Of a DNA stretch of 64,000 bases, positions 877 through 60,955 are shown one piece after another. The notes beneath the pieces were generated by a model. That model did no database searches. It was not told where the DNA came from and saw only the letters and a list, made by a program, of their open reading frames with translations. How positions within the stretch are numbered: position 1 is the stretch's first letter; the number at the start of each line of letters is the position of its first letter. Source of the DNA: an uncultured bacterium (GTDB taxonomy: Bacteria > Poribacteria > WGA-4E > WGA-3G); assembly GCA_964523645.1 (NCBI GenBank), contig CAZGAW010000002.1, positions 30,253 to 94,252 on the forward strand, read 5' to 3'. A program made the translations under genes and the position numbers.

Positions 877-1410
877 ATGGAAGATCAACTCAAAATGGCG
901 CGCCACAGTTTGGAAAATCTGCCGACACTCCAATGTCCTGACGGGTATCATATCCGAACCTATCGGCAAGGAGATGAAATATACTGGGCGCGAATAATGG
1001 ATAGAACCTTTGTAGACAACGGAAGAACTGCCGAAGACACCTACGCTAATGTTATTAACCAACCCAATTTTGATCCAGACGGCTTCTGTTTCGCTATCCA
1101 CAATGATGTCCCTATCGGCACGGCGTGTGCTTGGAATAAATGTCTTCGCGGCAAACCTATTGGTTATATTGACATGCTCGCTGTGCTTCCAGAGCACACA
1201 GGACATAAACTCGGCAAATGGTTAACAGTGTTCCTCCTCCACTATTTCAAAGCACAACGTGTGGTGTATGTCATGTTAGACACAGACGATTTTCGACTCC
1301 CCGCAATCAAAAATTATCTCAACCTCGGGTTTGTTCCCGTTTATGCGGGTGAAAGTCACCTGCGACGTTGGCGAAGTATCTTTGAAAAGTTAGGACTTTT
1401 CAAAAAATGA
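877..1410 (+). CDS. GNAT-family N-acetyltransferase (paralog 2)
   Basis: MEDQLKMARHSLENLP aligns with MARQLRMVRTNLENLP of the upstream gene; same EHTGHKLGKW and YLNLGF motifs; start trimmed from ORF-track 742 (overlaps upstream gene) to ATG 877. Confidence 0.65.
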   Translation: MEDQLKMARHSLENLPTLQCPDGYHIRTYRQGDEIYWARIMDRTFVDNGRTAEDTYANVINQPNFDPDGFCFAIHNDVPIGTACAWNKCLRGKPIGYIDMLAVLPEHTGHKLGKWLTVFLLHYFKAQRVVYVMLDTDDFRLPAIKNYLNLGFVPVYAGESHLRRWRSIFEKLGLFKK

Positions 1411-3128
1411 GAGTGCTTCTCGCCGTGAGAAACTGTTTTCGTTTATCGAATAACTTCGTTATATCCGCAATTCTCATCGGCGGCTTCAGTTTCCGACTCA
1501 TCGGCATAACCGTTGGCTTGCCTGATGCTCCCGACCCACGTGAAGTGCTAATCGCACAAGATGTGCTAAATCTCATCCACTTCACAGCACCCCCTGAAAT
1601 CTACAATTGGCCCGGAACAGCATGGTTTTACGTCATTGCTGCGGTGGGCAAATTGCTATCCCTCGTAGGTCTGCCTCTCACGGAAACTCGCGTAATTTTA
1701 TTGGCACGCTGTATCAATACGCTGTTGTCTACAGCGACCCTCTGGTTCACCTATCGCATCGGGGTTCACGGCTACAATAGGCGTGTCGGTCAACTCGCAG
1801 CCGGATTGCTCGCTGTTGCGATGCTACATGCCACCAACGAATCACGTTTTGCACTTGTGGACATTCCCGCAACCTTCTGTGTGACACTGTTTCTTTGGCT
1901 TGTGGCGCGTACGCGTTCTTCTTCAGTTTCTCCTACCTTCCAAACTGCGATATGGCTCGGTGTCATTGCGGGAATCGGTTTCGCCGTCAAATTTACAACC
2001 GTCTTTGCCGGTTTTTCTGTGTTGGTTTTCATTAGAAGTGAGGGTTTTTATAAAAAATTAGCAACAATTATAGGTATTTCTGCATTAACCTTTTCGTTCC
2101 TCTGTCCTTATTGGTTCATTGATCTGGTTTCACCCGAATGGAATCTCTTCTTTGAGGATTTCTGGTATGAAGCAACCCATTATCACCGCGGGCATTTCGG
2201 TCTCATCACTACGGCAGAATCTGGATTATTCCATCGGTTTATCTATTTGTGGACGCTCCTTAAGTGGGGGATGGGCTTGCCACTCGCACTCCTTGTTAGC
2301 TTGGGGGTCTTGTGTGCGCTCGCATCGCTTAAAGCGGTCAGCCGTCAGCAAAAAGGGTTCGTTAAACGGAAACCTCTTGACCGAAAGCCGATAGTTTCCG
2401 ATAATCAACAATTAGAAATACTCCTGCTCGCTTTTGTTGTGCCCTATCTACTCTTTATCGGGGTACACAAGGTTAAGTTTGTGCGTCATCTATTGATACT
2501 CTATCCAGCATTCACGCTGCTTGCCGCTGCCGCACTCACACGTATGCCAAACATTGTGGAGGCACTTCTACAGTCAAGACATTTCACTAAAAAGGTGCCA
2601 CCGAGAGGACTGAGTACATTTCCGGAATGGTTTGGTATAATTTTGGGGAGTGTTGTAGTGCTTTACTCGTTAGTTTACACGCTTGCCTTTGCTTCTATCC
2701 TATTCTCGCAGCCGACGAAGATTGCAGCATCCGATTGGGTAACCGCGCACATTCCTCAGGAAGAATCTATTGCTGTTGCGCCAGAGATCCTATTCAACTG
2801 GCTTCTCCCTGAATTAGACTTCGTAGGAACAGATGAAAAGGTGAAATGGGTGCTTATCCTTGTGCCGGACTATGAAGTGTTCAGAAAATACCAAGAATCT
2901 CCGCAACGGTATCAAGATGAGGATTGGTACCCTCTCAGCGAGATTGAGTTCGAGGAAACGCTCACATTTTACACGCGAGTTTTAAGGGAAGGAAGTCCGT
3001 ATGAATTGCAAAAGACCTTCCGCCGCATACCGAAGTTCTTAGGTATCCAGATCTCCGATGACGGCGCGCCGTTTCCGATGCGAGCCCTTGCACATCCGGA
3101 ACTCCGCATCTACCGGTACCTCAATTGA
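1407..3128 (+). CDS. polytopic membrane protein, GT-C/GT39 (ArnT/PMT)-like glycosyltransferase candidate
   Basis: 573 aa, many hydrophobic helices, ATGA start/stop overlap with the upstream GNAT gene; family assignment by overall layout only. Confidence 0.45.
   Translation: MRVLLAVRNCFRLSNNFVISAILIGGFSFRLIGITVGLPDAPDPREVLIAQDVLNLIHFTAPPEIYNWPGTAWFYVIAAVGKLLSLVGLPLTETRVILLARCINTLLSTATLWFTYRIGVHGYNRRVGQLAAGLLAVAMLHATNESRFALVDIPATFCVTLFLWLVARTRSSSVSPTFQTAIWLGVIAGIGFAVKFTTVFAGFSVLVFIRSEGFYKKLATIIGISALTFSFLCPYWFIDLVSPEWNLFFEDFWYEATHYHRGHFGLITTAESGLFHRFIYLWTLLKWGMGLPLALLVSLGVLCALASLKAVSRQQKGFVKRKPLDRKPIVSDNQQLEILLLAFVVPYLLFIGVHKVKFVRHLLILYPAFTLLAAAALTRMPNIVEALLQSRHFTKKVPPRGLSTFPEWFGIILGSVVVLYSLVYTLAFASILFSQPTKIAASDWVTAHIPQEESIAVAPEILFNWLLPELDFVGTDEKVKWVLILVPDYEVFRKYQESPQRYQDEDWYPLSEIEFEETLTFYTRVLREGSPYELQKTFRRIPKFLGIQISDDGAPFPMRALAHPELRIYRYLN
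2334..2414. repeat. heptad-armed palindromic element inside CDS, in frame (81 bp)
   Basis: GCGGTCAGCCGTCAGCAAAAAGGG-loop-GAAACCTCTT-GACCGAAAGCCGATAG...; encodes KAVSRQQKGFVKRKPLDRKPIVSDNQQ in a loop of the membrane protein. Confidence 0.65.
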
Positions 3129-5188: not shown

Positions 5189-8100
5189 ATGTTACCCGTA
5201 TCACGCGCAATTTTTCCTTATTCATATTTATGTTATTTTTTTCTCCTCACGCTGAACCTGCCTGTCCAGCCTATAAACGCAGCCGATCACGAAGGCGTAG
5301 CAAATCCGCCGCTTCCAACGGCTAACGACTCAGGCAGCGAAACGCAAACATTAATATTCGGGACAACCTCAACAGAAACCTTCAGTTTTGAAGATGTTTA
5401 TCGCATAGAACTCAGTTTAAATGTATCGGGAAATATTGAAATCATTGCTACAGAGGATAATGCCATCGCCGTCACGCTTGAAAAACAGGCACAGGCTACA
5501 AACACAGAACAAGATGACCTGGTTCGCGATTATCTTGATAACATTACCTTGAGAGGAACGCGAAGTGATAACACACTCCAGTTAACGATACGACTGCCGG
5601 GAAATTCTCCTCAAACCGAACCAAACCCACTTTCTAATATAGGCGAATCACAAGCGATACGCTCTGATGGACTTCAACTGAAATGTACAATTAAAACCCC
5701 AGCGGATGTCGCTGTTAAACTCCAGGCAAAAGTTGGAGATATACACCTTCAGCGTATCCGAGGGAAGATAGAAGCTTCGACAGGGACAGGAAACGTCCAT
5801 TTAAGTGAAACCTTAGGCAACTATAACATCAGTGTAACCCAGGGCAACATTGACGGGAAAATTTTGCTGACCCACGGACAAAACAAGTTGGAAACCCAAA
5901 ATGGCGCAATTGGATTGGTAATACTTGACCGTGTTGCAGCACCCATGGATATAACCGCTCAAGGGGGCAGCATCCGTTTACGACTTCCTGAGAATTATGC
6001 TGCGGATGTTGAATTTGAGAGTGAGAAACAGCAAATCGTTATTAATTTGCCCGTACAACTGGACGAGGAAACCGGATTAACCCTTATTAACGACGGGGGT
6101 CCACTGTTCCGGTTGAAAGCCACCGACGCGATTTCTCTACTACCGAGTTCACCAGGCGGCGAAAACACACCCATAGATGCTGAAGCGGATCCATTCATAG
6201 ATGCCGTTCAACCTGTCCCACAAATAGCAGCCCACCCCACTATTGATGGCGATTTATCTGAAATCGCTTGGCAATCAGCCGCGCGACTCTCCCCGTTCCA
6301 AAATCCAGATGGTACTGATGTGCCAAACAATCCAACTGAAACTTTTTTAATGTGGGATGCCGAGAATTTTTATGTCGGTGTAAAAGCCTATCTGTCTGAT
6401 TCATATCTTCCGTATATCTCACAAACGCAGCAGGATTCACCAATTTGGGAGGACGAATGTATCGAAATCCTAATTGATTCTAATCCGGAAACTGATACCT
6501 ATTATCATCTTGTCATCAATCCAATTAACGCGTATTTTGACCAGCAGGTGAATACATCTGGCGAGCCCAATTTTCGGTTTGCACCTCATGATGTCCAACG
6601 GACTTTAAGCCAGAAAACAATGCAAACGGCGTTCAAAGCGGATAGCGCGTGGAACTCAGAGGCGAAAGTTGCCAGCCAAATTAACAGCACTTTTTGGAGT
6701 CTTGAAGTTTCACTTCCGCGTAAAATGTTAGAATCCGTTTCAAAAGTGGATTCGCAGCCGACATCCCCTTTTGAAAACAAGTGGCTTTTTAATATCCACC
6801 GTAAGATGCACAGTAGCAATATGAAGAGCCTTATACCTGCTACGTCCAGAGAATATAGTTACTGGCTGCCAATTTACGATAACGAGCATCCGTGGTGGCC
6901 GCATTCGCCACAAGAGTATACGGGACCGCTTTCAAAACGCAATGGACCCGCAATGGGTGTCTTAGAATTCATAGCGACCCCGCCTACCGCTGAAGATTTT
7001 GCATCCGAAACAAAATTTCAGGTTGCTGCTATTGAAATTAAAGGGAACACCACGATTCCAACAGAGGTCATCCAACAGTCACTTCCCATCCAACCTGGGG
7101 ATATTATCACAAGTCCGCAGCTTTCTTGGTTGATCGCGGAATTGGGGGAACAGGACCGGTTCCAAGACGTGCGTTTGGAAACTAAGCAGGTCAGTATTGA
7201 CAGTGAAGAAACCATTAACAGTCAGCAATCAGAAATCAGTAACCAGCAGGCAGGTGTGAATGCATCGGAAACCTCTGTACCGATGGCTGAAAACCGACAA
7301 TTGAAAGCCATTCCAAGTGTCAGTTTGCATATCCGAGTTACAGAAACCCTTGTGCTTTTTGTCGAGCAAATCGAGATCAAAGGAAATAGGAGTTTCCCTG
7401 CGCAATTCATTAAAGAGTGGTTTCAGTTAGAATCCGGCTATCTCGCTGTTGCAGTTGTTATACTAAAACAACAATTAATTGCTGATTTTTATTCAAATCG
7501 CGGATATGAATTCGCCACGGTTACGTATCAATCTACCGACAATGTACTTGAATTTAACGTCAACGAGGGAACATTGCACGAAATTCGTTTCACTGGTAAC
7601 ACGCAAATCTCGCGGGCGGAACTGTTGTCAGCACTTGACTTAAAGACTGAAGATAACGATGAAAAACAAGGTTCACAAACTTCGGATATCTACCATCATG
7701 CGCTTGGTCAATCGAAAATAAACCGTATGCGCAAAGAGCTCAGCGAAAACAGCGAACATTTCAGATCAATACGGGATTGGCGTGTTCAGCGCGAAGGTGG
7801 AAAAAACATCATGATTGTTGAAATTGAAGAACGTCCATTAGTGAGACCGGGGGGGTTCCCAATTCTTCAATTCAATCGTGTTCACGGGTTAATGCTTGGC
7901 GCGGGGGGAAGACTCTCGACGCATCTCACGGGTAAGGAACAGGTTTTCGGTTCAATAAGCCGTGGATTTTCGAGCAAAATATGGAACTATCACGCCGGTA
8001 TAGAAAAAGGGGTCCTTAAACGGCAGCCCCTCAGGTTCGGAGGTAGTTTCTATAAACTCACCGATATTAGCTCCAGCGTCTATTTGGGGCCTACTGAGGT

Positions 8101-14105: not shown

Positions 14106-14243
14106 CTATCAGTTGTCAGTCGTCAGTTGTCAGTTAAGAGGTTTCTTTGTTACGGCTTATTACACCTTGGCGTACTCCAAGCAAAAATAAATTGTTACCG
14201 AAAGTCTTTTAACTGATAACCGATAACTGATAACTGATAACTA
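14106..14243. repeat. heptad-armed palindromic element (complete, intergenic)
   Basis: Left CTATCAGTTGTCAGTCGTCAGTTGTCAGTTAAGAGGTTTC, right GAAAGTCTTTTAACTGATAACCGATAACTGATAACTGATAACTA; arms are imperfect reverse complements; ends 8 nt before ATG 14252. Confidence 0.85.
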
Positions 14244-14251
14244 ATACAAAT

Positions 14252-16147: not shown

Positions 16148-16181
16148 GGAAAGCAAAAGTCTGAACTATGATTTGGAGATT

Positions 16182-16416
16182 TATAGGATTAGGACTTACG
16201 CAGCCTGCTCATTTGAGCATCTGACTTTATGGTTTGTGTCTCTTTGTAGCACAAACTTTCCAGTTTGTGTCTCTGTGTAGCACAAACCTTATAGTTTTTG
16301 GCTCTTTGTAGCACAAACTTTCCAGTTTGTGTCAGAAGAACGTGTGTTTTTGCGAGAGTTCCCATCTCACAGGACGGGCTACCGAAACTACAATTGCGTA
16401 AGTCCTGAGGATTATA
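16182..16416. mobile_element. MITE-like element bounded by ~21-bp inverted repeats (TATAGGATTAGGACTTACGCA / TGCGTAAGTCCTGAGGATTATA)
   Basis: Terminal inverted repeats seen directly; the interior carries the 31-bp tandem hairpin array; no ORF. Confidence 0.55.
16232..16334 (+). repeat. 3.3 tandem copies of a 31-bp unit, each containing hairpin GTTTGTG-N11-CACAAAC
   Basis: Copies at 16232-62, 16263-93, 16294-324 and a partial copy at 16325-34; units are contiguous with no spacers. Confidence 0.85.
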
Positions 16417-16494
16417 GGTTTTCAGGATAATCCTAAGCGCATAGCCCATAATGAAATTATGCCTTAAATGGCATAATTTGTCTTTGCTTTACAT

Positions 16495-20713: not shown

Positions 20714-20720
20714 AATAGGA

Positions 20721-20815
20721 GTCAGCCATCAGCAGTCAGCAGTCAGCAAGAGGGTGTAATTACATCAGAAAACCTCTTAACTAACAGCCGATTGCTGATA
20801 CCCTGATAGCCACTG
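20721..20815. repeat. heptad-armed palindromic element (complete, intergenic)
   Basis: GTCAGCCATCAGCAGTCAGCAGTCAGCAAGAGGGTG-loop-AAAACCTCTTAACTAACAGCCGATTGCTGATACCCTGATAGCCACTG; ends 2 nt before ATG 20818. Confidence 0.8.
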
Positions 20816-26038: not shown

Positions 26039-28464
26039 TATACTTCACCTACAGTCAGCGCACCTTCGCGGTTTGATAGAAAACTTTCGAGAAGCATAAG
26101 ACAGACGACTAAAACGAGCAATTCACCCCAAATTTCCCTGCCGTGTCGCTTGACGTTGTAGGTATCGACTGCTGCCGCGTTTCCCTCGATTTCCGGATCT
26201 GCTGCTGTCTGTGCCCCGATGCGTGCCGCTGCCTGTGCCAGCGAAATTTCTGTTAAGTCGGCTTCCGTAGTGTCAACATTAACCGCAAAAAAGTCTCGTT
26301 GCGTTCTATCTTGCGTCTGTACCTCGATCTGATAGATACCGGGACGTTCTGTGCCTTGAAATCGCAGTGTGCCATCTTCAGCGATTGGTACGACTGTGGA
26401 ATGGCTCTTGGCTTTCGGTTCGCGGTTCTCGGTTCTTGGAACTTGTGGCGGTTGCGCGCTACCTTCTGCCGGCTGTTGACTGTTGACTGGCATTAGATGA
26501 ATAGCGGCCTTCCCGCCAGCACTGCGAGGATAATGCGCCGTATAGGTATCACCGATATGTCCACCCCATGTTAAGAAATTCTTGCTGGATACCGTCGCGT
26601 AAAGCACGCTCTGTTGGAGCATCGGAAGGAAATACGGATTAACAAGCAGATCGTTTGTATAATGGCTGTCAGAAAGCATCGGTTGTCGATTGTCAGTTAA
26701 TCGGTTTTCTGGTGTAGGGGCAATCCCTTGTGGTTGCCCGTTTGGGGCAGGCACAAGACCTGCCCCTACAAACCGACCGCTGACCCCTGATTGCTGACGG
26801 CTGACCGCCATTAAGCCACAGTTATAAAGCAGGACGGTACCTGTGCCTTGACTTCGTTCAACGAGAAAAGGTGTGTCGTCCCCGAAACGGGCAATTACAT
26901 TAGATTCTGACACAGGCTGTAATGCCATACCGTTATAAAACTGCGGGGCGTACTGCATAGAAAACCCTTCACTTGGAAAGATATCAAAGATAGGATGTAT
27001 TTCCTGGTACGCTTGCACTCGTTGTGGAGGTGTCCATGTCAGTGTGCTACCAAGTTGTGCAGGCAACCAAACATTACTGAACCCATTGTAGCTTGTTGCC
27101 TCGGTACGGCTGCTCACGAAAACAATGATACTTTTACCTTGTCGGATGAATTCTTGCAGTTGCGCATTAATCTGGCGCGACATTGTCAACACATCCGCGA
27201 GGATAATGACATCATAGTCCTCCAACGGGAAGGTTTCAAAATCAACAGGTGTGCATTGCGTCGGCAGAATCATTACATTGGCTGTCGGCAATCGGCTATC
27301 AGCAATCAGTTGATCGCTGTAGCGGTTGCTATCCTTTTCACCGGTTTCCACAAGACTCTCTTGCTGACGGCTGACGGCTGACGGGTGACCGCTATGTCTA
27401 TGTGGATTTAACGCTAATGTGAGATATTCCGTTTGTTCGCCTACACAGAGTACGCGGACTTCCCCGAGGGCATCCAAAGCAAAATAACGCTGGTTGTCGA
27501 TATTAAGGCGGTCATCCGTTAGTGTGAAGTGACCGATATGCGTACCGGGCGTAGAAAAGTTGTATGTTAAAGCGGTGTTCAGCGATTGGTTCGCTGCCGC
27601 GGAAAAACTCATGGTTTTTTGTTTCTCGCCTCCAATAAACAGTGTAAGTATATTTTGATCCAAAGGTGCTACTGAATGATTCACAGTCGTCACGTTCAAT
27701 TGGAATGGTAAATCTACGCCTATTAGTTGATTTGAAGGACGAATTTCTTTAATACTTATATTATGTGCGTCACCTTCGGCAACCGGAATCAGAGAGATAC
27801 GGGCACCAGAGCGGTTTGGGAGTCTACCCCAATTCTTCCATCCGTTTCGGGCGAAGTCTGAAATCAAATATATTTCCTTGTGTAGGGGCGCGGTTACCTC
27901 GCCCTTACGTTCAGTGAGAATTTCGTGGGCGAGTTCTAGGCTGGATTGGACATTCGTCGTACGGTAAGAAGTTTCTGTGTCGTTGATTGCTGTGATAACG
28001 CTCTCAAGGTCCGGTGTGAGTTGCCGAAAGATAGGTTTCGGGATGTCTGACATTAATATAAGCGCAGCACTATCGCCGTGCCGCAAGGTATCAATGATGT
28101 CGGTTGCCAAAGTTTTCGCTTTCTCGAATCTGATACCATTAATGTCTTGATACGCCATGCTATAAGAATTATCTAAGACAATAACCACATCTGTCTTCGC
28201 TCGCACGGAGGCAACAGGCAGTCCGAGCGTCAAAAACGGACGTGCCAAGGCGAGTGCAATGAGTGCAATAATCGCCATCCGTAAGAGCAAAATGAGAAGT
28301 TGACGGAGTTGGAAGCGACGGGCATTCTCTCGGTGTGCTGCCGTGAGAAATATCAGGCTGCTAAAGTCGATTGTCACAACACGACGACGGTTCCAGAGGT
28401 GGATGACCAGGGGGATACCAGCGGCAAGAAGTCCAAAGAGAAAAAGCGGGTTGAGAAATGCCAT
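26038..28464 (-). CDS. BatA-N (aerotolerance N-terminal double-TM) + VWA-domain protein, 808 aa
   Basis: MAFLNPLFLFGLLAAGIPLVIHLWNRRR is the classic BatA_N/TIGR02226-type start; VVIVLDNSYSM looks like a VWA MIDAS start; C-terminal TM. Confidence 0.7.
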   Translation of the reverse strand: MAFLNPLFLFGLLAAGIPLVIHLWNRRRVVTIDFSSLIFLTAAHRENARRFQLRQLLILLLRMAIIALIALALARPFLTLGLPVASVRAKTDVVIVLDNSYSMAYQDINGIRFEKAKTLATDIIDTLRHGDSAALILMSDIPKPIFRQLTPDLESVITAINDTETSYRTTNVQSSLELAHEILTERKGEVTAPLHKEIYLISDFARNGWKNWGRLPNRSGARISLIPVAEGDAHNISIKEIRPSNQLIGVDLPFQLNVTTVNHSVAPLDQNILTLFIGGEKQKTMSFSAAANQSLNTALTYNFSTPGTHIGHFTLTDDRLNIDNQRYFALDALGEVRVLCVGEQTEYLTLALNPHRHSGHPSAVSRQQESLVETGEKDSNRYSDQLIADSRLPTANVMILPTQCTPVDFETFPLEDYDVIILADVLTMSRQINAQLQEFIRQGKSIIVFVSSRTEATSYNGFSNVWLPAQLGSTLTWTPPQRVQAYQEIHPIFDIFPSEGFSMQYAPQFYNGMALQPVSESNVIARFGDDTPFLVERSQGTGTVLLYNCGLMAVSRQQSGVSGRFVGAGLVPAPNGQPQGIAPTPENRLTDNRQPMLSDSHYTNDLLVNPYFLPMLQQSVLYATVSSKNFLTWGGHIGDTYTAHYPRSAGGKAAIHLMPVNSQQPAEGSAQPPQVPRTENREPKAKSHSTVVPIAEDGTLRFQGTERPGIYQIEVQTQDRTQRDFFAVNVDTTEADLTEISLAQAAARIGAQTAADPEIEGNAAAVDTYNVKRHGREIWGELLVLVVCLMLLESFLSNREGALTVGEV
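26664..26810. repeat. heptad-armed palindromic element inside CDS, in frame (147 bp)
   Basis: GGCTGTCAGAAAGCATCGGTTGTCGATTGTCAGTTAATCGG - hairpin GGGGCAGG..CCTGCCCC - CCGCTGACCCCTGATTGCTGACGGCTGACCGCC; encodes AVSRQQSGVSGRFVGAGLVPAPNGQPQGIAPTPENRLTDNRQPMLSDS. Confidence 0.7.
27281..27394. repeat. heptad-armed palindromic element inside CDS, in frame (114 bp)
   Basis: GGCTGTCGGCAATCGGCTATCAGCAATCAGTTGATCGC ... CCACAAGACTCTCTTGCTGACGGCTGACGGCTGACGGGTGACCGCTA; encodes HPSAVSRQQESLVETGEKDSNRYSDQLIADSRLPTA. Confidence 0.7.
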
Positions 28465-28467
28465 TTT

Positions 28468-28628
28468 AGTTATCAGGTGTCAGTCGTCAGTCATCAGTTT
28501 TTAGAGTCGTCAGTTAAGAGGGTTTTTTAACAATCTTATCTTCGTTGGGCATCAGTCTCTATTTAGAACGATGAGTGTTACCAAACCTCTCTTGTGACTG
28601 ATAACTGATAACCGATAACTGACAACTA
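28468..28628. repeat. heptad-armed palindromic element (complete, intergenic)
   Basis: AGTTATCAGGTGTCAGTCGTCAGTCATCAG...GTCGTCAGTTAAGAGGGTTTTTT - 60 nt - AAACCTCTCTTGTGACTGATAACTGATAACCGATAACTGACAACTA. The terminal CTA is the TAG stop of the upstream (minus) gene; the other end is 3 nt from start 28464. Confidence 0.85.
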
Positions 28629-30146
28629 ATAGATCGTAATTTCAAGTTGATTGAGGGTATGTAAAACACCTTCTGCGAATTCCATAAGATTGTCCGACTC
28701 CAGAATGCTACCGCCGAGTTGAATGTGGTTCGCATCAGCAATGAGCTGATCCAACGTTGGATCCATCTGTACCCATTTACCGACATAGACTTCGGGCCAG
28801 AAATGGTAATAGAAGGCATCCTTTGCAAATACAACACCCGAGCAAATCCGTGCTGGGATTCCGGCAGCACGTGCCAGCGCGATAAATAGTACTGTATGTT
28901 CCGTGCAATCGCCAGAGAGTGACTGTAGTACTGTTAATGACGAAGCAAAACCTCCACTCATTTTTTTATCGTTAATCGATGTGTAAACCCAACGACATAA
29001 TTTTTCCGCGGCACGCCACGAATTAACTTCGTCCTCCAAAATTTCCGCAGCCTTTGCCTGAATATCGGGATGATTGGCTTGAATATATGCACTTGCAGCA
29101 AGGAATTCACCTTCTGGACTCTGGATGGGTAGAGCGAGGCAATCTTCCGCTACAATGAGTGGAACCTGAATGGAAAGTTTACCAGCGTGTGCAGTGTTTA
29201 CCTCGAGTTTCTGCCGACGGGTAGACATAACAACTTCGGCGATGTTCCCTGTTGGGAGTTTCACTTCTGCCTCAAGGTGTTTTGCTGTTGGAATCGGATG
29301 TTTACCTGAAGGCAGGATACGAGTTTTTAAGACAACATCAACTTCTTCGATACCACCAAGCGCAGTCTCCTTATCCGTCTTCGTAGTTACCATGGAAAGC
29401 CCCATTAAAGGCACTTCTGTCCGATAGTTTACACCCTCTCGGTCAATCCACAGTTTCGCCGTAATGCCATTCATTATGTCAATTGTCTGTCTTAAAACAT
29501 AAACCTGCTTTTCCTCCGACTGATACCTTAAGGTTTCCTCTCCTAAAATCTCGATTTCCGTTTGCGCAGGTTTCAGCAGGTCAAAAATGAACATGTGAAA
29601 GGTACGTTTATCGCCTACTTTAAGTGCCTTCTGGGTTAGCAATGATGCTACACCTGTGTATTCAGAAATGGTATCTGGTGGTACCGAGATTTCTGATTCG
29701 GTGATTTCACCGTTGAGTGCTGTTTTAACGTGGGCAATTCCATCTACAATCTGTCCCTCAATCTGTTTTAATCCAGATTCATTAGAGGTCGAAAGAAAGT
29801 AGCGAGGCGTTAAGTCGGAACCTATATATTCAACGCGAGTAATTTCAACGGTTATGTCGGTCCCAAGTGCCTTAAAATTCATCACGATATCGGTTTTGTT
29901 CCGAGCGACCTGTTCCCCTTGATACTCGGTTTCTTCAGTAGATGTGTGCATGTAACCGATCTTGGTGTTCATCAAGGTGAGATTATACCAGTGTTCTTGC
30001 GGATGATTTAGCATGTTTTGGAATGTGCTTTGTTCTTCGTCTGCAGCGTCCGCTGACGTAGCGGCTTGCAGGCAGAGCATCGCTGCTATGCAGGCAAACG
30101 CAAAGCGGCGCAGATGATAAAACTTCAAAAATTTTGATAATATCAT
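28626..30146 (-). CDS. transglutaminase-like (Cys-His-Asp) domain protein, secreted
   Basis: GDCTEHTVLFIALARAAGIPAR, YYHFWPEVY and MDPT give the C/H/D triad context of the transglutaminase-core superfamily; signal peptide present. Confidence 0.7.
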   Translation of the reverse strand: MILSKFLKFYHLRRFAFACIAAMLCLQAATSADAADEEQSTFQNMLNHPQEHWYNLTLMNTKIGYMHTSTEETEYQGEQVARNKTDIVMNFKALGTDITVEITRVEYIGSDLTPRYFLSTSNESGLKQIEGQIVDGIAHVKTALNGEITESEISVPPDTISEYTGVASLLTQKALKVGDKRTFHMFIFDLLKPAQTEIEILGEETLRYQSEEKQVYVLRQTIDIMNGITAKLWIDREGVNYRTEVPLMGLSMVTTKTDKETALGGIEEVDVVLKTRILPSGKHPIPTAKHLEAEVKLPTGNIAEVVMSTRRQKLEVNTAHAGKLSIQVPLIVAEDCLALPIQSPEGEFLAASAYIQANHPDIQAKAAEILEDEVNSWRAAEKLCRWVYTSINDKKMSGGFASSLTVLQSLSGDCTEHTVLFIALARAAGIPARICSGVVFAKDAFYYHFWPEVYVGKWVQMDPTLDQLIADANHIQLGGSILESDNLMEFAEGVLHTLNQLEITIY

Positions 30147-31993: not shown

Positions 31994-32075
31994 CTGTCAG
32001 TTATCAGGCACAAGAGATATAAGGAGCATCAAAACCTCTTGTAACTGACGACTCATAACCGACAACTGGCGACTA
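31994..32075. repeat. heptad-armed palindromic element (intergenic)
   Basis: CTGTCAGTTATCAGGCACAAGAGAT-loop-AAAACCTCTTGTAACTGACGACTCATAACCGACAACTGGCGACTA. Confidence 0.8.
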
Positions 32076-56397: not shown

Positions 56398-56953
56398 TTA
56401 TACACCTCCTCTCTATTTAAAAGCCCCGTCTCTTGCTATATAAGAATAGAGACCTATCCTCACTATATTTTTTCACGCAATAAGTAGTTTTGGGATTGGT
56501 TAAATTATATAACATTCCTTAATCAGTAGTTAGGTTTTATTTATCAAGGGTTAATCAATTCCATTCTGCATCGGTGAGTCGCCAACCTATTCTAACTTTG
56601 CCTGACTCACTCCACAAAGACTCAACCCGACACTCATCTTGCAATTTGTTAAGAAGTTTTCTATGCGACCGCCCAAAGGGGGCACCGGACGACGGGGCAT
56701 ATCTCCTATAGGTCCCCATTTCTTTGCCTATGTCGGCACCACTACAGATCTCCAAATTGAATGGAAAGTATTCCCCGGACCTTGGCGGTTTGATATTTCC
56801 ACAATAGCGGTGAGCATTTCTTCATCCACGATATTGTCTTCATACGCCGGCAATCTGTATGTGCCGTTCTTCTTTGACTCAGATAATCCAGAATCAAGTC
56901 CGTACACAGCACCAATTGATGCTGAAAAAATGTTTATTTGAGCGGATGCCCCC

Positions 56954-60327: not shown

Positions 60328-60946
60328 ACAGACTGGATTTCGACATGTGCTCAACTCGGAATGTGAAACACAATTTGCGAGTCCAGATGAACTTTCAGCG
60401 TACATTGATAAAGAATTGCCAGCATGGAAACGCCATCTCATCCGCCGGCATCTCAGGAAATGTGCGACTTGTGCGGGGCACATTCAACAGTTAAAACAAA
60501 CAGACCACTTCCTGCGCCAAAGCGATGGGGTTGAAGTCTCTGATGGCTTTTTAAACGATGTAATGATGCGCGTATCGGAAGCAACGAAACACCAGCAACA
60601 ACAGGATTCGCTTTGGGTACGTGCCATGCAATTCATTGGAACATCGCTTGGATGGGCGCGGCACGGTTCAGTACTGACTGACAAGCTTCGGTACAGTATT
60701 CGGACCCGCAGTCCGGTTTATATCTTTGTACTGACCTTCGCTGTTTTTACGATGGTGGGGGCGACGCTTTACCAATCCTCGAGTGATAGATTTGGACAAT
60801 CACGACACACACTGAAGAATTCACAAGAACTCGATGGTGAAAGATTAATTTCCTTTGAGGTTATTCAACACGAGCCACCGAAACGCTTACTTACAACCTA
60901 CCTGAGTCAGCCATCAGCCGTCAGTCGTCAGCCGTCATCAAGATAG
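60314..60946 (+). CDS. anti-sigma factor (zf-HC2) with TM segment
   Basis: HLRKCATCAGH (Hx3Cx2C), overlap with the sigma gene, central TM VYIFVLTFAVFTMVGATL; the last ~14 codons are read from a heptad repeat. Confidence 0.6.
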   Translation: MRKYKQTGFRHVLNSECETQFASPDELSAYIDKELPAWKRHLIRRHLRKCATCAGHIQQLKQTDHFLRQSDGVEVSDGFLNDVMMRVSEATKHQQQQDSLWVRAMQFIGTSLGWARHGSVLTDKLRYSIRTRSPVYIFVLTFAVFTMVGATLYQSSSDRFGQSRHTLKNSQELDGERLISFEVIQHEPPKRLLTTYLSQPSAVSRQPSSR

Positions 60947-60955
60947 CCGATAGCG
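60904..60955. repeat. heptad repeat (left-arm type) forming the 3' end of the anti-sigma ORF
   Basis: GAGTCAG CCATCAG CCGTCAG TCGTCAG CCGTCAT CAAGATAGCCGATAGCG; translated as LSQPSAVSRQPSSR-stop. Confidence 0.7.

Follow-up and report, generated by a model that had tools for sequence, protein, structure and literature searches.

Why does a membrane protein gene of a Candidatus Poribacteria genome carry, between two hydrophobic stretches, 81 nt built largely from seven-nucleotide repeats, and how did they come to be there? We address this question for the element at 2334-2414 of a 64-kb window, the whole stretch of DNA analysed here (64,000 nt, 15% of it intergenic), in whose numbering all positions are given. 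The names given to close orthologues of the host gene place the genome among the Candidatus Poribacteria, which are sponge symbionts. Our preferred reading, to which we assign a probability of about 0.72, is that the element is a decaying copy of a dispersed palindromic repeat, lodged in a loop of a GT-C-type glycosyltransferase (GT), read in frame with it and turned over by host recombination and replication. The element had been pointed out in a first-pass annotation of the window, which ascribed the recurrence of the peptide AVSRQQ to a shared inserted DNA element.

Host Gene and Anatomy of the Element

The 573-aa product of the host gene matches PF13231 (PMT_2) with 29.7 bits against a cut-off of 26.1, and its orthologues carry the NCBI name glycosyltransferase family 39. 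The gene neighbourhood, GNAT-GNAT-GT-adk (adk, adenylate kinase), is conserved in synteny among orthologous loci. The gene and the parts of the element are as follows.

1407-3128 (+), host GT gene: polytopic membrane protein of 573 aa, GT-C type, PMT_2/GT39-like; frame intact on both sides of the element
2334-2414 (+), in-frame repeat element: 81 nt, or 27 codons, encoding AVSRQQKGFVKRKPLDRKPIVSDNQQL between two hydrophobic stretches
2334-2349 (+), left arm: GCGGTCA GCCGTCA GC, two-plus TCAG heptads, read as AVSRQ(Q)
2350-2378 (+), core: AAAAAGGGTTCGTTAAACGGAAACCTCTT, 29 nt, a degenerate copy of AAGAGGGTTyyyGTTAAaCgAAAACCTCTT when aligned with 28 other copies, read as (Q)KGFVKRKPL
2379-2407 (+), right arm: GACCGAA AGCCGAT AGTTTCCGAT AATCA, made of CCGA-type heptads and one 10-nt unit, stop-free in the used frame only
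2408-2414 (+), terminal 7 nt: ACAATTA in the window, AATACGCA in relatives and TGTATCA in empty alleles, from the alignment of the site

The sequence, the reading frame and the flanking hydrophobic stretches reported for this 81-bp element in a GT-C-like membrane gene all proved correct, and the arm/AAGRGG/CCTCTT core architecture claimed for it is present, with a degenerate inner stem (AAAAGGG in place of AAGAGGG). The element follows the plan GCGGTCA GCCGTCA GC / AAAAAGGG...AAACCTCTT / GACCGAA AGCCGAT..., and an 18-mer of its left arm, GCGGTCAGCCGTCAGCAA, is identical to the start of a copy in a BatA/VWA gene at 26808-26791 (-). The last seven nucleotides are probably diverged host codons outside the element proper, as a related copy at another locus (L013) stops at ...GATAGCC(A). 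If translated, the insert would include peptides such as GFVKRKPLDR and KPIVSDNQQLEILLLAFVVPYLLFIGVHK.

Loop States among Orthologues

We aligned 120 orthologous proteins with 68-100% identity. In 57 of them the segment is replaced by a short loop, K-R-EVGGFPV-S-E; the remaining orthologues possess inserts of 17-73 residues, mostly beginning with KAVS[RS]Q, KVISSR or KAVGNRQSAVG. In all seven distant homologues (23-35% identity) the loop measures 4-7 residues, most of them basic (RRERG, RHKK, KRN etc.), and a single homologue with 49% identity has a different insert, of ~30 residues, at the loop position. Because the distant homologues and almost half of the orthologues share a short loop, we take it to be the ancestral state, and the segment in the window is a derived, gained insertion. 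The gap analysis agrees with what the first-pass annotation had expected, in that orthologues free of the repeat do not conserve the segment and show a nine-residue loop, R-EVGGFPV-S, instead. A model of the repeat described below (R1) finds nothing at the loop site of an empty allele (L001). Comparison of filled and empty alleles further reveals that ~20 nt of ancestral loop codons are absent from the filled ones, so this was not a clean insertion.

A Dispersed Repeat of Poribacteria

A genome collection of 596 Gb was scanned once with a pattern of the left-arm/inner-stem junction (36-bit). It matched more than 118 genome loci, about three quarters of them in Poribacteria, which are a tiny part of the collection; the matches elsewhere are about as many as the ~35 chance matches estimated by hand. 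From the scan loci we collected 31 short-core copies and built R1, a sequence-only model, from 26 of them, leaving out the copies of the window and of GT genes. The best match of R1 in the whole window is 2333-2396 (+), that is, the GT element (52.8 bits, E 1.8e-15, model positions 4-72 of 73), which scores far lower on the minus strand (25.4 bits).

The closest comparison comes from an unrelated locus. In its better-preserved form in a close orthologue (L003), the GT element is ~88% identical over all 74 nt to the copy at L013, upstream of pth in another genome, and the right arms are identical at 27 of 27 positions, the odd 10-nt unit GGTTTCCGAT included. Such a match indicates that arm, core and arm are dispersed together as one piece of DNA. 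Copies with a similar core (core A in the following) also occur at unrelated loci L041, L046 and L123, and further copies include L097. Twenty-six of the 31 short-core copies are intergenic. The GT segment belongs to a dispersed, mostly intergenic repeat largely confined to Poribacteria, and the view that AVSRQQ recurs by way of a shared inserted DNA element is borne out by the score of the leave-out model, the 74-nt match and the intergenic majority of copies. No Rfam 15 family matches at the gathering threshold anywhere in the window, and our literature search found no paper describing such repeats in Poribacteria (Poribacteria together with heptanucleotide returned none).

The same data bear on a strictly local origin, in which the loop would have grown in place by slippage of a chance heptad-like seed, with no imported DNA, its likeness to other copies coming from a slippage-prone unit that is favoured everywhere. 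The ancestral loop DNA does contain the arm-like stretches GTCGG and GGTTTCC, the number of heptads varies among orthologues (as in anti-sigma factor tails that differ by three units), and the arms show no copy-specific complementarity. However, slippage cannot create a 29-nt core and a 27-nt right arm with an odd 10-nt unit that are common to unrelated loci, and the R1 match spans arm, core and arm. Given the L003/L013 match, a local origin of the GT copy is largely refuted, and we regard it as very improbable.

Among the junction matches outside Poribacteria, not all are due to chance: opposed TCAG/CTGA arrays surround AAGAGRGTT at three loci, the last two being in metagenome-assembled genomes (MAGs).

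L022:1480-1640, heptad-armed palindrome in Nostoc sp. FACHB-152
L030:1400-1500, heptad-armed palindrome in a Pedosphaera MAG
L028:7000-7100, heptad-armed palindrome in a marine MAG

Palindromes of the heptad-armed plan appear, from these sequences, to exist at low copy number in other phyla.

Further Copies in the Window

The 13-mer GTCAGCCGTCAGC occurs 16 times in the window with up to two mismatches (4 exact), against 0.9 expected, and none of 100 shuffles reached 16. Tandem Repeats Finder reports 17 period-7 arrays in the 64 kb, with the consensus units TAACTGA, AACTGAA, ACTGATA, GTCAGCC and AGTCAGC. Their contexts disclose a common plan, (RTCAGYN)n - AAGAGG - variable core - CCTCTT - (NNCYGAN)n, with two opposed heptad arrays, a total length of 60-165 nt and ends of varying length. 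About half of the arrays sit in the intergenic 15% of the window, several of them spanning an entire stop-to-start spacer. Genic copies are found in four window genes, encoding GT, BatA/VWA (twice), anti-sigma and Omp85 proteins. The copies that matter here, apart from the GT element, are listed below.

7222-7295 (+), decayed in-frame copy in a 1259-aa Omp85/BamA-like gene, absent from the first-pass annotation of this element: reads NSQQSEISNQQAGVNASETSVPMAENRQLKA; R1 29 bits, E 4.9e-8, model positions 2-72
14106-14246 (+), intact intergenic long-core copy: (GTCAGTT)n and (TAACTGA)n arms, with exact (TAACTGA)n arrays at 14210-14246; folding free energy (dG) -55 kcal/mol, z -9.5
20720-20815 (+), intact intergenic short-core copy filling a two-gene spacer: fold z -3.7, R1 44 bits; the best comparator in the window
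26775-26808 (-), left arm of the second genic copy, in the 808-aa BatA/VWA gene (BatA site 2): reads AVSRQQSGVSG; its core is a different palindrome
27280-27393 (-), third genic copy, in the BatA/VWA gene: arms and an AAGAGAG... core, reading PSAVSRQQESLVETGEKD...
28468-28631 (+), intergenic copy between two minus-strand genes: fold z -5.1
60906-60950 (+), arms-only copy running past the 3' end of a 210-aa zf-HC2 anti-sigma gene, which takes its final 13 codons and its TAG stop from the copy

Two of these sites can be compared with empty alleles as well. At BatA site 2 both filled and empty alleles exist, and the empty allele at L132 has GLLARTATYTND there. The anti-sigma gene, compared with loci L130 and L131, ends in TTYLQQK* in alleles without the array and in TTYLSQPSAVSGRQSAR* or TTYLSQPSAR* in filled alleles; the two filled ends differ by three heptads, that is, seven residues.

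The first-pass annotation had placed AVSRQQ in three other proteins of the window. The three further occurrences exist, though in two other proteins rather than three.

26791-26808 (-), AVSRQQ in the 808-aa BatA/VWA gene, encoded by GTCAGCC heptads
27370-27381 (-), SAVSRQQ in the 808-aa BatA/VWA gene, encoded by GTCAGCC heptads
60914 (+), SAVSRQP in the tail of the 210-aa zf-HC2 anti-sigma gene, encoded by GTCAGCC heptads

Mapped back to DNA, AVSRQQ-type peptides are heptad-encoded in every real open reading frame (ORF) of the window. A six-frame match to SVSRQP at 56571 is not heptad-encoded, lies in a short non-genic frame and was set aside as a chance match. AVSRQQ derives from the heptad arm alone and not from the core, and coreless arms do occur, for example in the anti-sigma tail and in an orthologue of the GT gene (L002).

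The BatA/VWA gene contains two further period-7 arrays at 26415-26436 and 26473-26489 (-), with TCGGTTC / CTGTTGA units, which makes five heptad arrays in one gene. The intergenic copies at 28468-28631 and 31994-32075 have the TCAG arm first on the plus strand and lie among minus-strand genes, so intergenic orientation is not tied to the direction of transcription.

Frame Rules and Translation

How can such a repeat be read through? Three heptads make 21 nt, and a pure array accordingly gives one and the same seven-residue peptide whatever the frame. For GTCAGCC this peptide is VSRQPSA, from which AVSRQQ arises. Across the 31 copies, all three sense frames of the left arm are open in 20 and all antisense frames are closed in 23, and the right arms have the opposite pattern. 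Arms of TCAG heptads are stop-free in any frame only in the orientation found in the GT gene. By these rules a complete element fits an ORF only with the TCAG arm first and with a right arm that avoids CTGA. The genic copies use CCGA right arms, which leave one frame open, the GT copy having the GC-richer units GTCAGCC and GCCGAT; in the window, every genic copy has the orientation of its gene.

The repeat is a three-part palindrome, consisting of a left arm of TCAG heptads, a short core bounded by AAGAGGG...CCCTCTT and an inverted CTGA/CCGA right arm. In our proposed mechanism, a copy entered the GT-C-type glycosyltransferase gene at codons for a loop that joins two transmembrane helices and is both basic and very short, and would now be transcribed and translated with the gene as a hydrophilic loop of 27 residues with a net charge of +5. 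The insert would be tolerated because the TCAG arms are open, the CCGA right arm offers an open frame and the loop lies outside the conserved helices. The family-conserved residues downstream of the insert are intact, and the gene is very likely functional and the insert translated, as far as its sequence can tell.

Folding, Decay and Effect on the Protein

The GT copy folds with a dG of -13.6 kcal/mol and a z of +0.2, compared with z values of -3.7 to -9.5 for intact intergenic copies; its long hairpin is lost. We read this as decay under coding constraint and not as exclusion from the family. In the window the right arm shows more drift than in a 91%-identical relative, from which 4 of the 27 insert residues differ, and the conservation pattern of the insert lies at the DNA level rather than at the protein level.

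Attempts to find structure maintained by selection gave negative results. Within a copy, the two arms match at 13.6 of 24 positions, against 13.8 between copies (permutation p = 0.77), so no copy-specific complementarity is present. RNAalifold on a MAFFT alignment of 29 copies returned no consensus structure, the registers of the arms being different. A comparison of sense and antisense fold energies found no consistent bias, and a strand asymmetry through G:U wobble pairs, which would have pointed to structure at the RNA level, was dropped on this ground. We see no sign of either hairpin selection or an RNA stage.

The insert is basic (7 K/R versus 2 D/E), as was the short loop whose place it takes; the positive-inside rule makes a cytoplasmic location probable. 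An AlphaFold2 model made with 54 orthologues puts the insert in a coil (318-331) between two predicted helices, with a mean pLDDT of 47 and a pTM of 0.42, values that leave the model too poor for use.

One further feature at the junction of core and right arm has to be considered.

2377-2405 (+), match to the sigma-70 consensus: TTGACC-17 nt-GATAAT, 10/12, the best match of the region and a consensus match only

If the insert were selected for a function, it might be a cytoplasmic loop that can be tuned, a promoter within the gene serving its 3' half, or a phase-variation switch by which heptad slippage turns the glycosyltransferase on and off. Heptads are not multiples of three, and one unit more or less would put the gene out of frame; the promoter-like match lies inside the element; over half of the orthologues have an occupied loop; and TAACTGA repeats have been proposed as regulatory sites (PMC4679880). 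Nevertheless, the left arm has two heptads, too few for efficient slippage, and all sampled alleles are in frame, the sample being biased in this respect as it consists of called proteins. The -10 part of the promoter-like match needs changes specific to the window (GATAAT here, GATAGC in relatives). The loop sequence itself looks unconstrained, with eight unrelated states and the differences from the close relative given above, and many lineages and all distant homologues do without an insert. We would be greatly surprised if the insert were maintained for a function; most likely it has none of its own and is neutral or slightly deleterious passenger DNA.

Turnover of the Loop

We masked the loop and built a tree of the 120 orthologues, on which the eight loop states require no fewer than 38 changes; occupancy alone needs at least 15, nine of which are forced by well-supported branches. 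The loop DNA was compared at eight orthologous loci, which with the window have the following alleles.

L001: empty
L002; L008 (right-arm units only): arms only
Window, L003, L004: arms and core A
L005: arms and core B (GGAAG/CTTCCAA palindrome)
L006: arms, core C and an A-like core
L007: arms and core D

The five-member clade of the window (95% support) alone contains arms only, core A twice, core B and core D. The L002 and window alleles differ by exactly 39 nt, corresponding to the core and 1.5 heptads, with an AGC direct repeat at the bounds. Judging by these alleles, the arms persist while cores are absent or swapped between close relatives. Cores B and C and the repeat of allele class F are themselves dispersed repeats, and allele classes E and F are other repeats inserted with the ancestral KR...GGF flanks intact.

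Exchange between strains has left a trace as well. Per 60 nt of the gene, the empty allele L001 and the core B allele L005 show 0-2 nt differences, except in a patch around the loop (~25 nt on the left and ~15 nt on the right) that holds seven extra substitutions, the left ones synonymous. This divergent patch implies that at least one allele was imported on a short recombination tract, and part of the patchy distribution on the tree therefore reflects transfer of alleles rather than fresh insertion. Altogether, the compared sequences portray the GT loop as a hot spot for gain, loss and swap of repeats among close relatives.

Two of the repeats seen in the loop recur elsewhere. The palindrome GGAAGRR / CTTCCAA (7-8-nt units) is dispersed, has an in-frame reading, GTGRREEGKDGDPNLPTFQPSNQ, and is present in the GT loop of 29 of the 120 orthologues. 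The repeat GTAGGTGCGGTTTsnAACCGCACC is very abundant in Poribacteria (13 copies in ~1 Mb) and reads VGAVSNRT in frame; in orthologue P0102 it is inserted in the GT loop with the ancestral KRESGGFSV intact.

L005:1940-2060; L009, L088, L098, L121: loci with the GGAAGRR / CTTCCAA palindrome
L003, L006, L007, L056, L066, L083, L090 and others: loci with GTAGGTGCGGTTTsnAACCGCACC

Mode of Movement

By what route did the copy arrive, and how is it exchanged? Three processes of the host may contribute: heptads may slip, dispersed copies may undergo gene conversion through the homology that their arms share, and strains may exchange DNA by homologous recombination. That these three together move the element is a tentative proposal, which we hold at slightly under even odds. 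The retention of arms with exchanged cores, the 39-nt difference bounded by AGC and the recombination tract favour it. Filled and empty alleles at the GT loop, BatA site 2 and the anti-sigma end reveal no target-site duplication. Target nucleotides are absent from filled alleles at the first two of these sites (~20 and ~9, respectively), and no TTAA-type target was found. No transposase ORF flanked by the element is present in ~1 Mb of Poribacteria loci. The lack of a duplication and of a visible transposase, together with the missing ~20 nt of target, favours recombination and replication by the host, and makes cut-and-paste transposition the less likely mode of movement.

Two candidates for a carrier were rejected. 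Four long "loops" (463-928 nt) between junctions looked like an autonomous version and turned out to be paired separate elements flanking ordinary small genes. Carriage by phages was suggested by three matches in viral contigs, which have no second arm and are attributed to chance.

The main competitor is a non-autonomous transposon of MITE/REPIN type, whose heptad arrays would be terminal inverted repeats recognized by a transposase or RAYT-like enzyme encoded elsewhere; the GT copy would be an old one in which the duplication and the target edges have decayed. The inverted-repeat architecture and small size, the many dispersed copies with fairly defined ends and the lineage-specific distribution all suit such an element, and classes E and F entered the GT loop independently with flanks intact, as after clean insertion. 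On the other hand, the duplication is absent at all three sites and not at the GT loop alone, arm length is variable and the ends are fuzzy, ~1 Mb yielded no element-flanked transposase ORF, the viral-contig matches are chance, and core swaps with retained arms are awkward under cut-and-paste. We consider a transposon of this kind unlikely.

A bolder version of host-driven movement takes the heptad arrays as portable homology handles, by which cores are exchanged by conversion and heptad-like sites are seeded, giving mobility without a transposase. Heptad-like target seeds are seen at two sites, GTCGG...GGTTTCC in the GT loop and TCAGCAG at the anti-sigma end, and we hypothesize that they guide entry; the pattern is suggestive at these two sites and absent at the third. 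We find the handle idea doubtful, if worth stating: were it true, the GT loop would be a natural record of transposase-free, recombination-driven mobility.

Returning to a decaying palindrome copy turned over by the host, several points weigh against that reading. Seed-guided entry does not fit BatA site 2. The ~20-nt target loss and the absent duplication could be later decay after a classical insertion, and there could be an autonomous partner, or a dedicated enzyme of RAYT-like or other type, outside the ~1 Mb of Poribacteria DNA covered. That the insert is translated is deduced from the intact frame and the conserved C-terminal half of the protein, and its cytoplasmic side from charge only. 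Finally, the insert could have a modest function, such as the internal promoter-like site at 2377-2405 or a tuned loop length.

Comparison with Known Repeats

Knowledge of STRR/TAACTGA-type heptamer repeats goes back decades, with no agreement on their origin and function, and in-frame palindromic elements are best documented in Rickettsia. Mazel et al. reportedly described the cyanobacterial STRR heptamers in 1990. The small dispersed repeats (SDR elements) of Nostocaceae, treated by Elhai et al. in 2008 (Genome Res 18:1484; cited in PMC3116915 and PMC5861425), are reported to be hairpin units of 21-27 nt that often lie within tandem heptamers, are nested or mosaic and recently mobile, with mobility proposed to proceed through RNA; we know of no enzyme for them. 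The ~29-nt hairpin core of the Poribacteria repeat within its heptads recalls the SDR layout. Unlike SDR elements, the present repeat belongs to another phylum and has no strand asymmetry suggesting an RNA stage.

The window possesses tandem 7-nt units of the STRR/TAACTGA kind, including the exact (TAACTGA)n at 14210-14246. Direct repeats of the TAACTGA heptamer are described from marine Beggiatoaceae, some Cyanobacteria and Bacteroidetes (MacGregor 2015, PMC4679880). According to that article, the forward orientation has stops in all frames (LITDN-stop) and the reverse, TCAGTTA, is open (LSVISYQ). The Poribacteria repeat resembles this, with one orientation open (VSRQPSA here, LSVISYQ there) and the other with stops, and in both cases most copies lie in spacers beside start codons and a minority in ORFs at permissive places (PMC4679880). 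In the same account, however, the TAACTGA repeats are simple direct repeats, with one indirect repeat in the BOGUAY genome, whereas the Poribacteria element is a composite palindrome of opposed arrays and a hairpin core; the taxa it describes do not include Poribacteria (PMC4679880). The genic copies in Poribacteria also differ by using the GC-richer GTCAGCC / GCCGAT units. New here is that a heptad of the STRR/TAACTGA class builds composite palindromes in another phylum, Poribacteria.

The Rickettsia palindromic elements (RPEs) are the closest analogue of in-frame residence. A MITE review summarising Ogata et al. gives a unit of ~150 bp and nearly half of the elements inside ORFs (PMC10969869). 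On that description both are short dispersed palindromes, found in frame in unrelated housekeeping genes, with a tolerated peptide and variation between relatives (PMC10969869). We draw this parallel by analogy and not by sequence comparison; the Poribacteria repeat comes from an unrelated phylum, and heptad architecture is not a feature of RPEs. Its arms are variable-number tandem heptads and its copies mostly intergenic (26/31), as opposed to the fixed ~150-bp unit and the nearly half in ORFs that the review reports for RPEs. Further differences are that its cores are modular and exchangeable and that its peptide stems largely from the frame-independent reading of a 7-nt repeat.

REP/BIME and REPIN sequences are abundant short imperfect palindromes, extragenic by definition and tied to a RAYT (IS200/IS605-like) gene (PMC3116915). 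Residence mostly in spacers, lineage-specific families and mosaic arrangements are common to them (PMC3116915) and to the Poribacteria repeat, but REPs are without heptad arrays and the Poribacteria repeat is also genic. Compared with MITEs, the Poribacteria element has the inverted repeats, the small size and the lack of own coding capacity, but not the target-site duplication.

What sets this locus apart is one single-copy syntenic gene that discloses, for at least 120 genomes, whether its loop is empty, holds arms alone or holds arms together with one of several cores. Gain, loss, core exchange and inter-strain transfer of a repeat become countable on a tree, which bears on how such repeats move. 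For annotation, AVSRQQ, SAVSGRQSAR and KRKPL...VSDSQY, where they recur in Poribacteria proteins, represent translated repeat DNA and not protein motifs, and length differences among orthologues at such loops carry no functional signal.

Neighbouring Features

Upstream of the GT gene lie two tandem paralogues of GNAT acetyltransferases, at 273-869 and 742-1410. In its longest frame the second extends ~125 nt into the first, probably an artefact of start-codon choice, as orthologues are called at 175 aa. A further repeat, unrelated to the heptad family, occupies 16232-16333 in a 347-nt spacer (16148-16494), where the 31-nt unit GTTTGTGTCTCTTTGTAGCACAAACTTTCCA is repeated 3.3 times head to tail with no spacers between the units.

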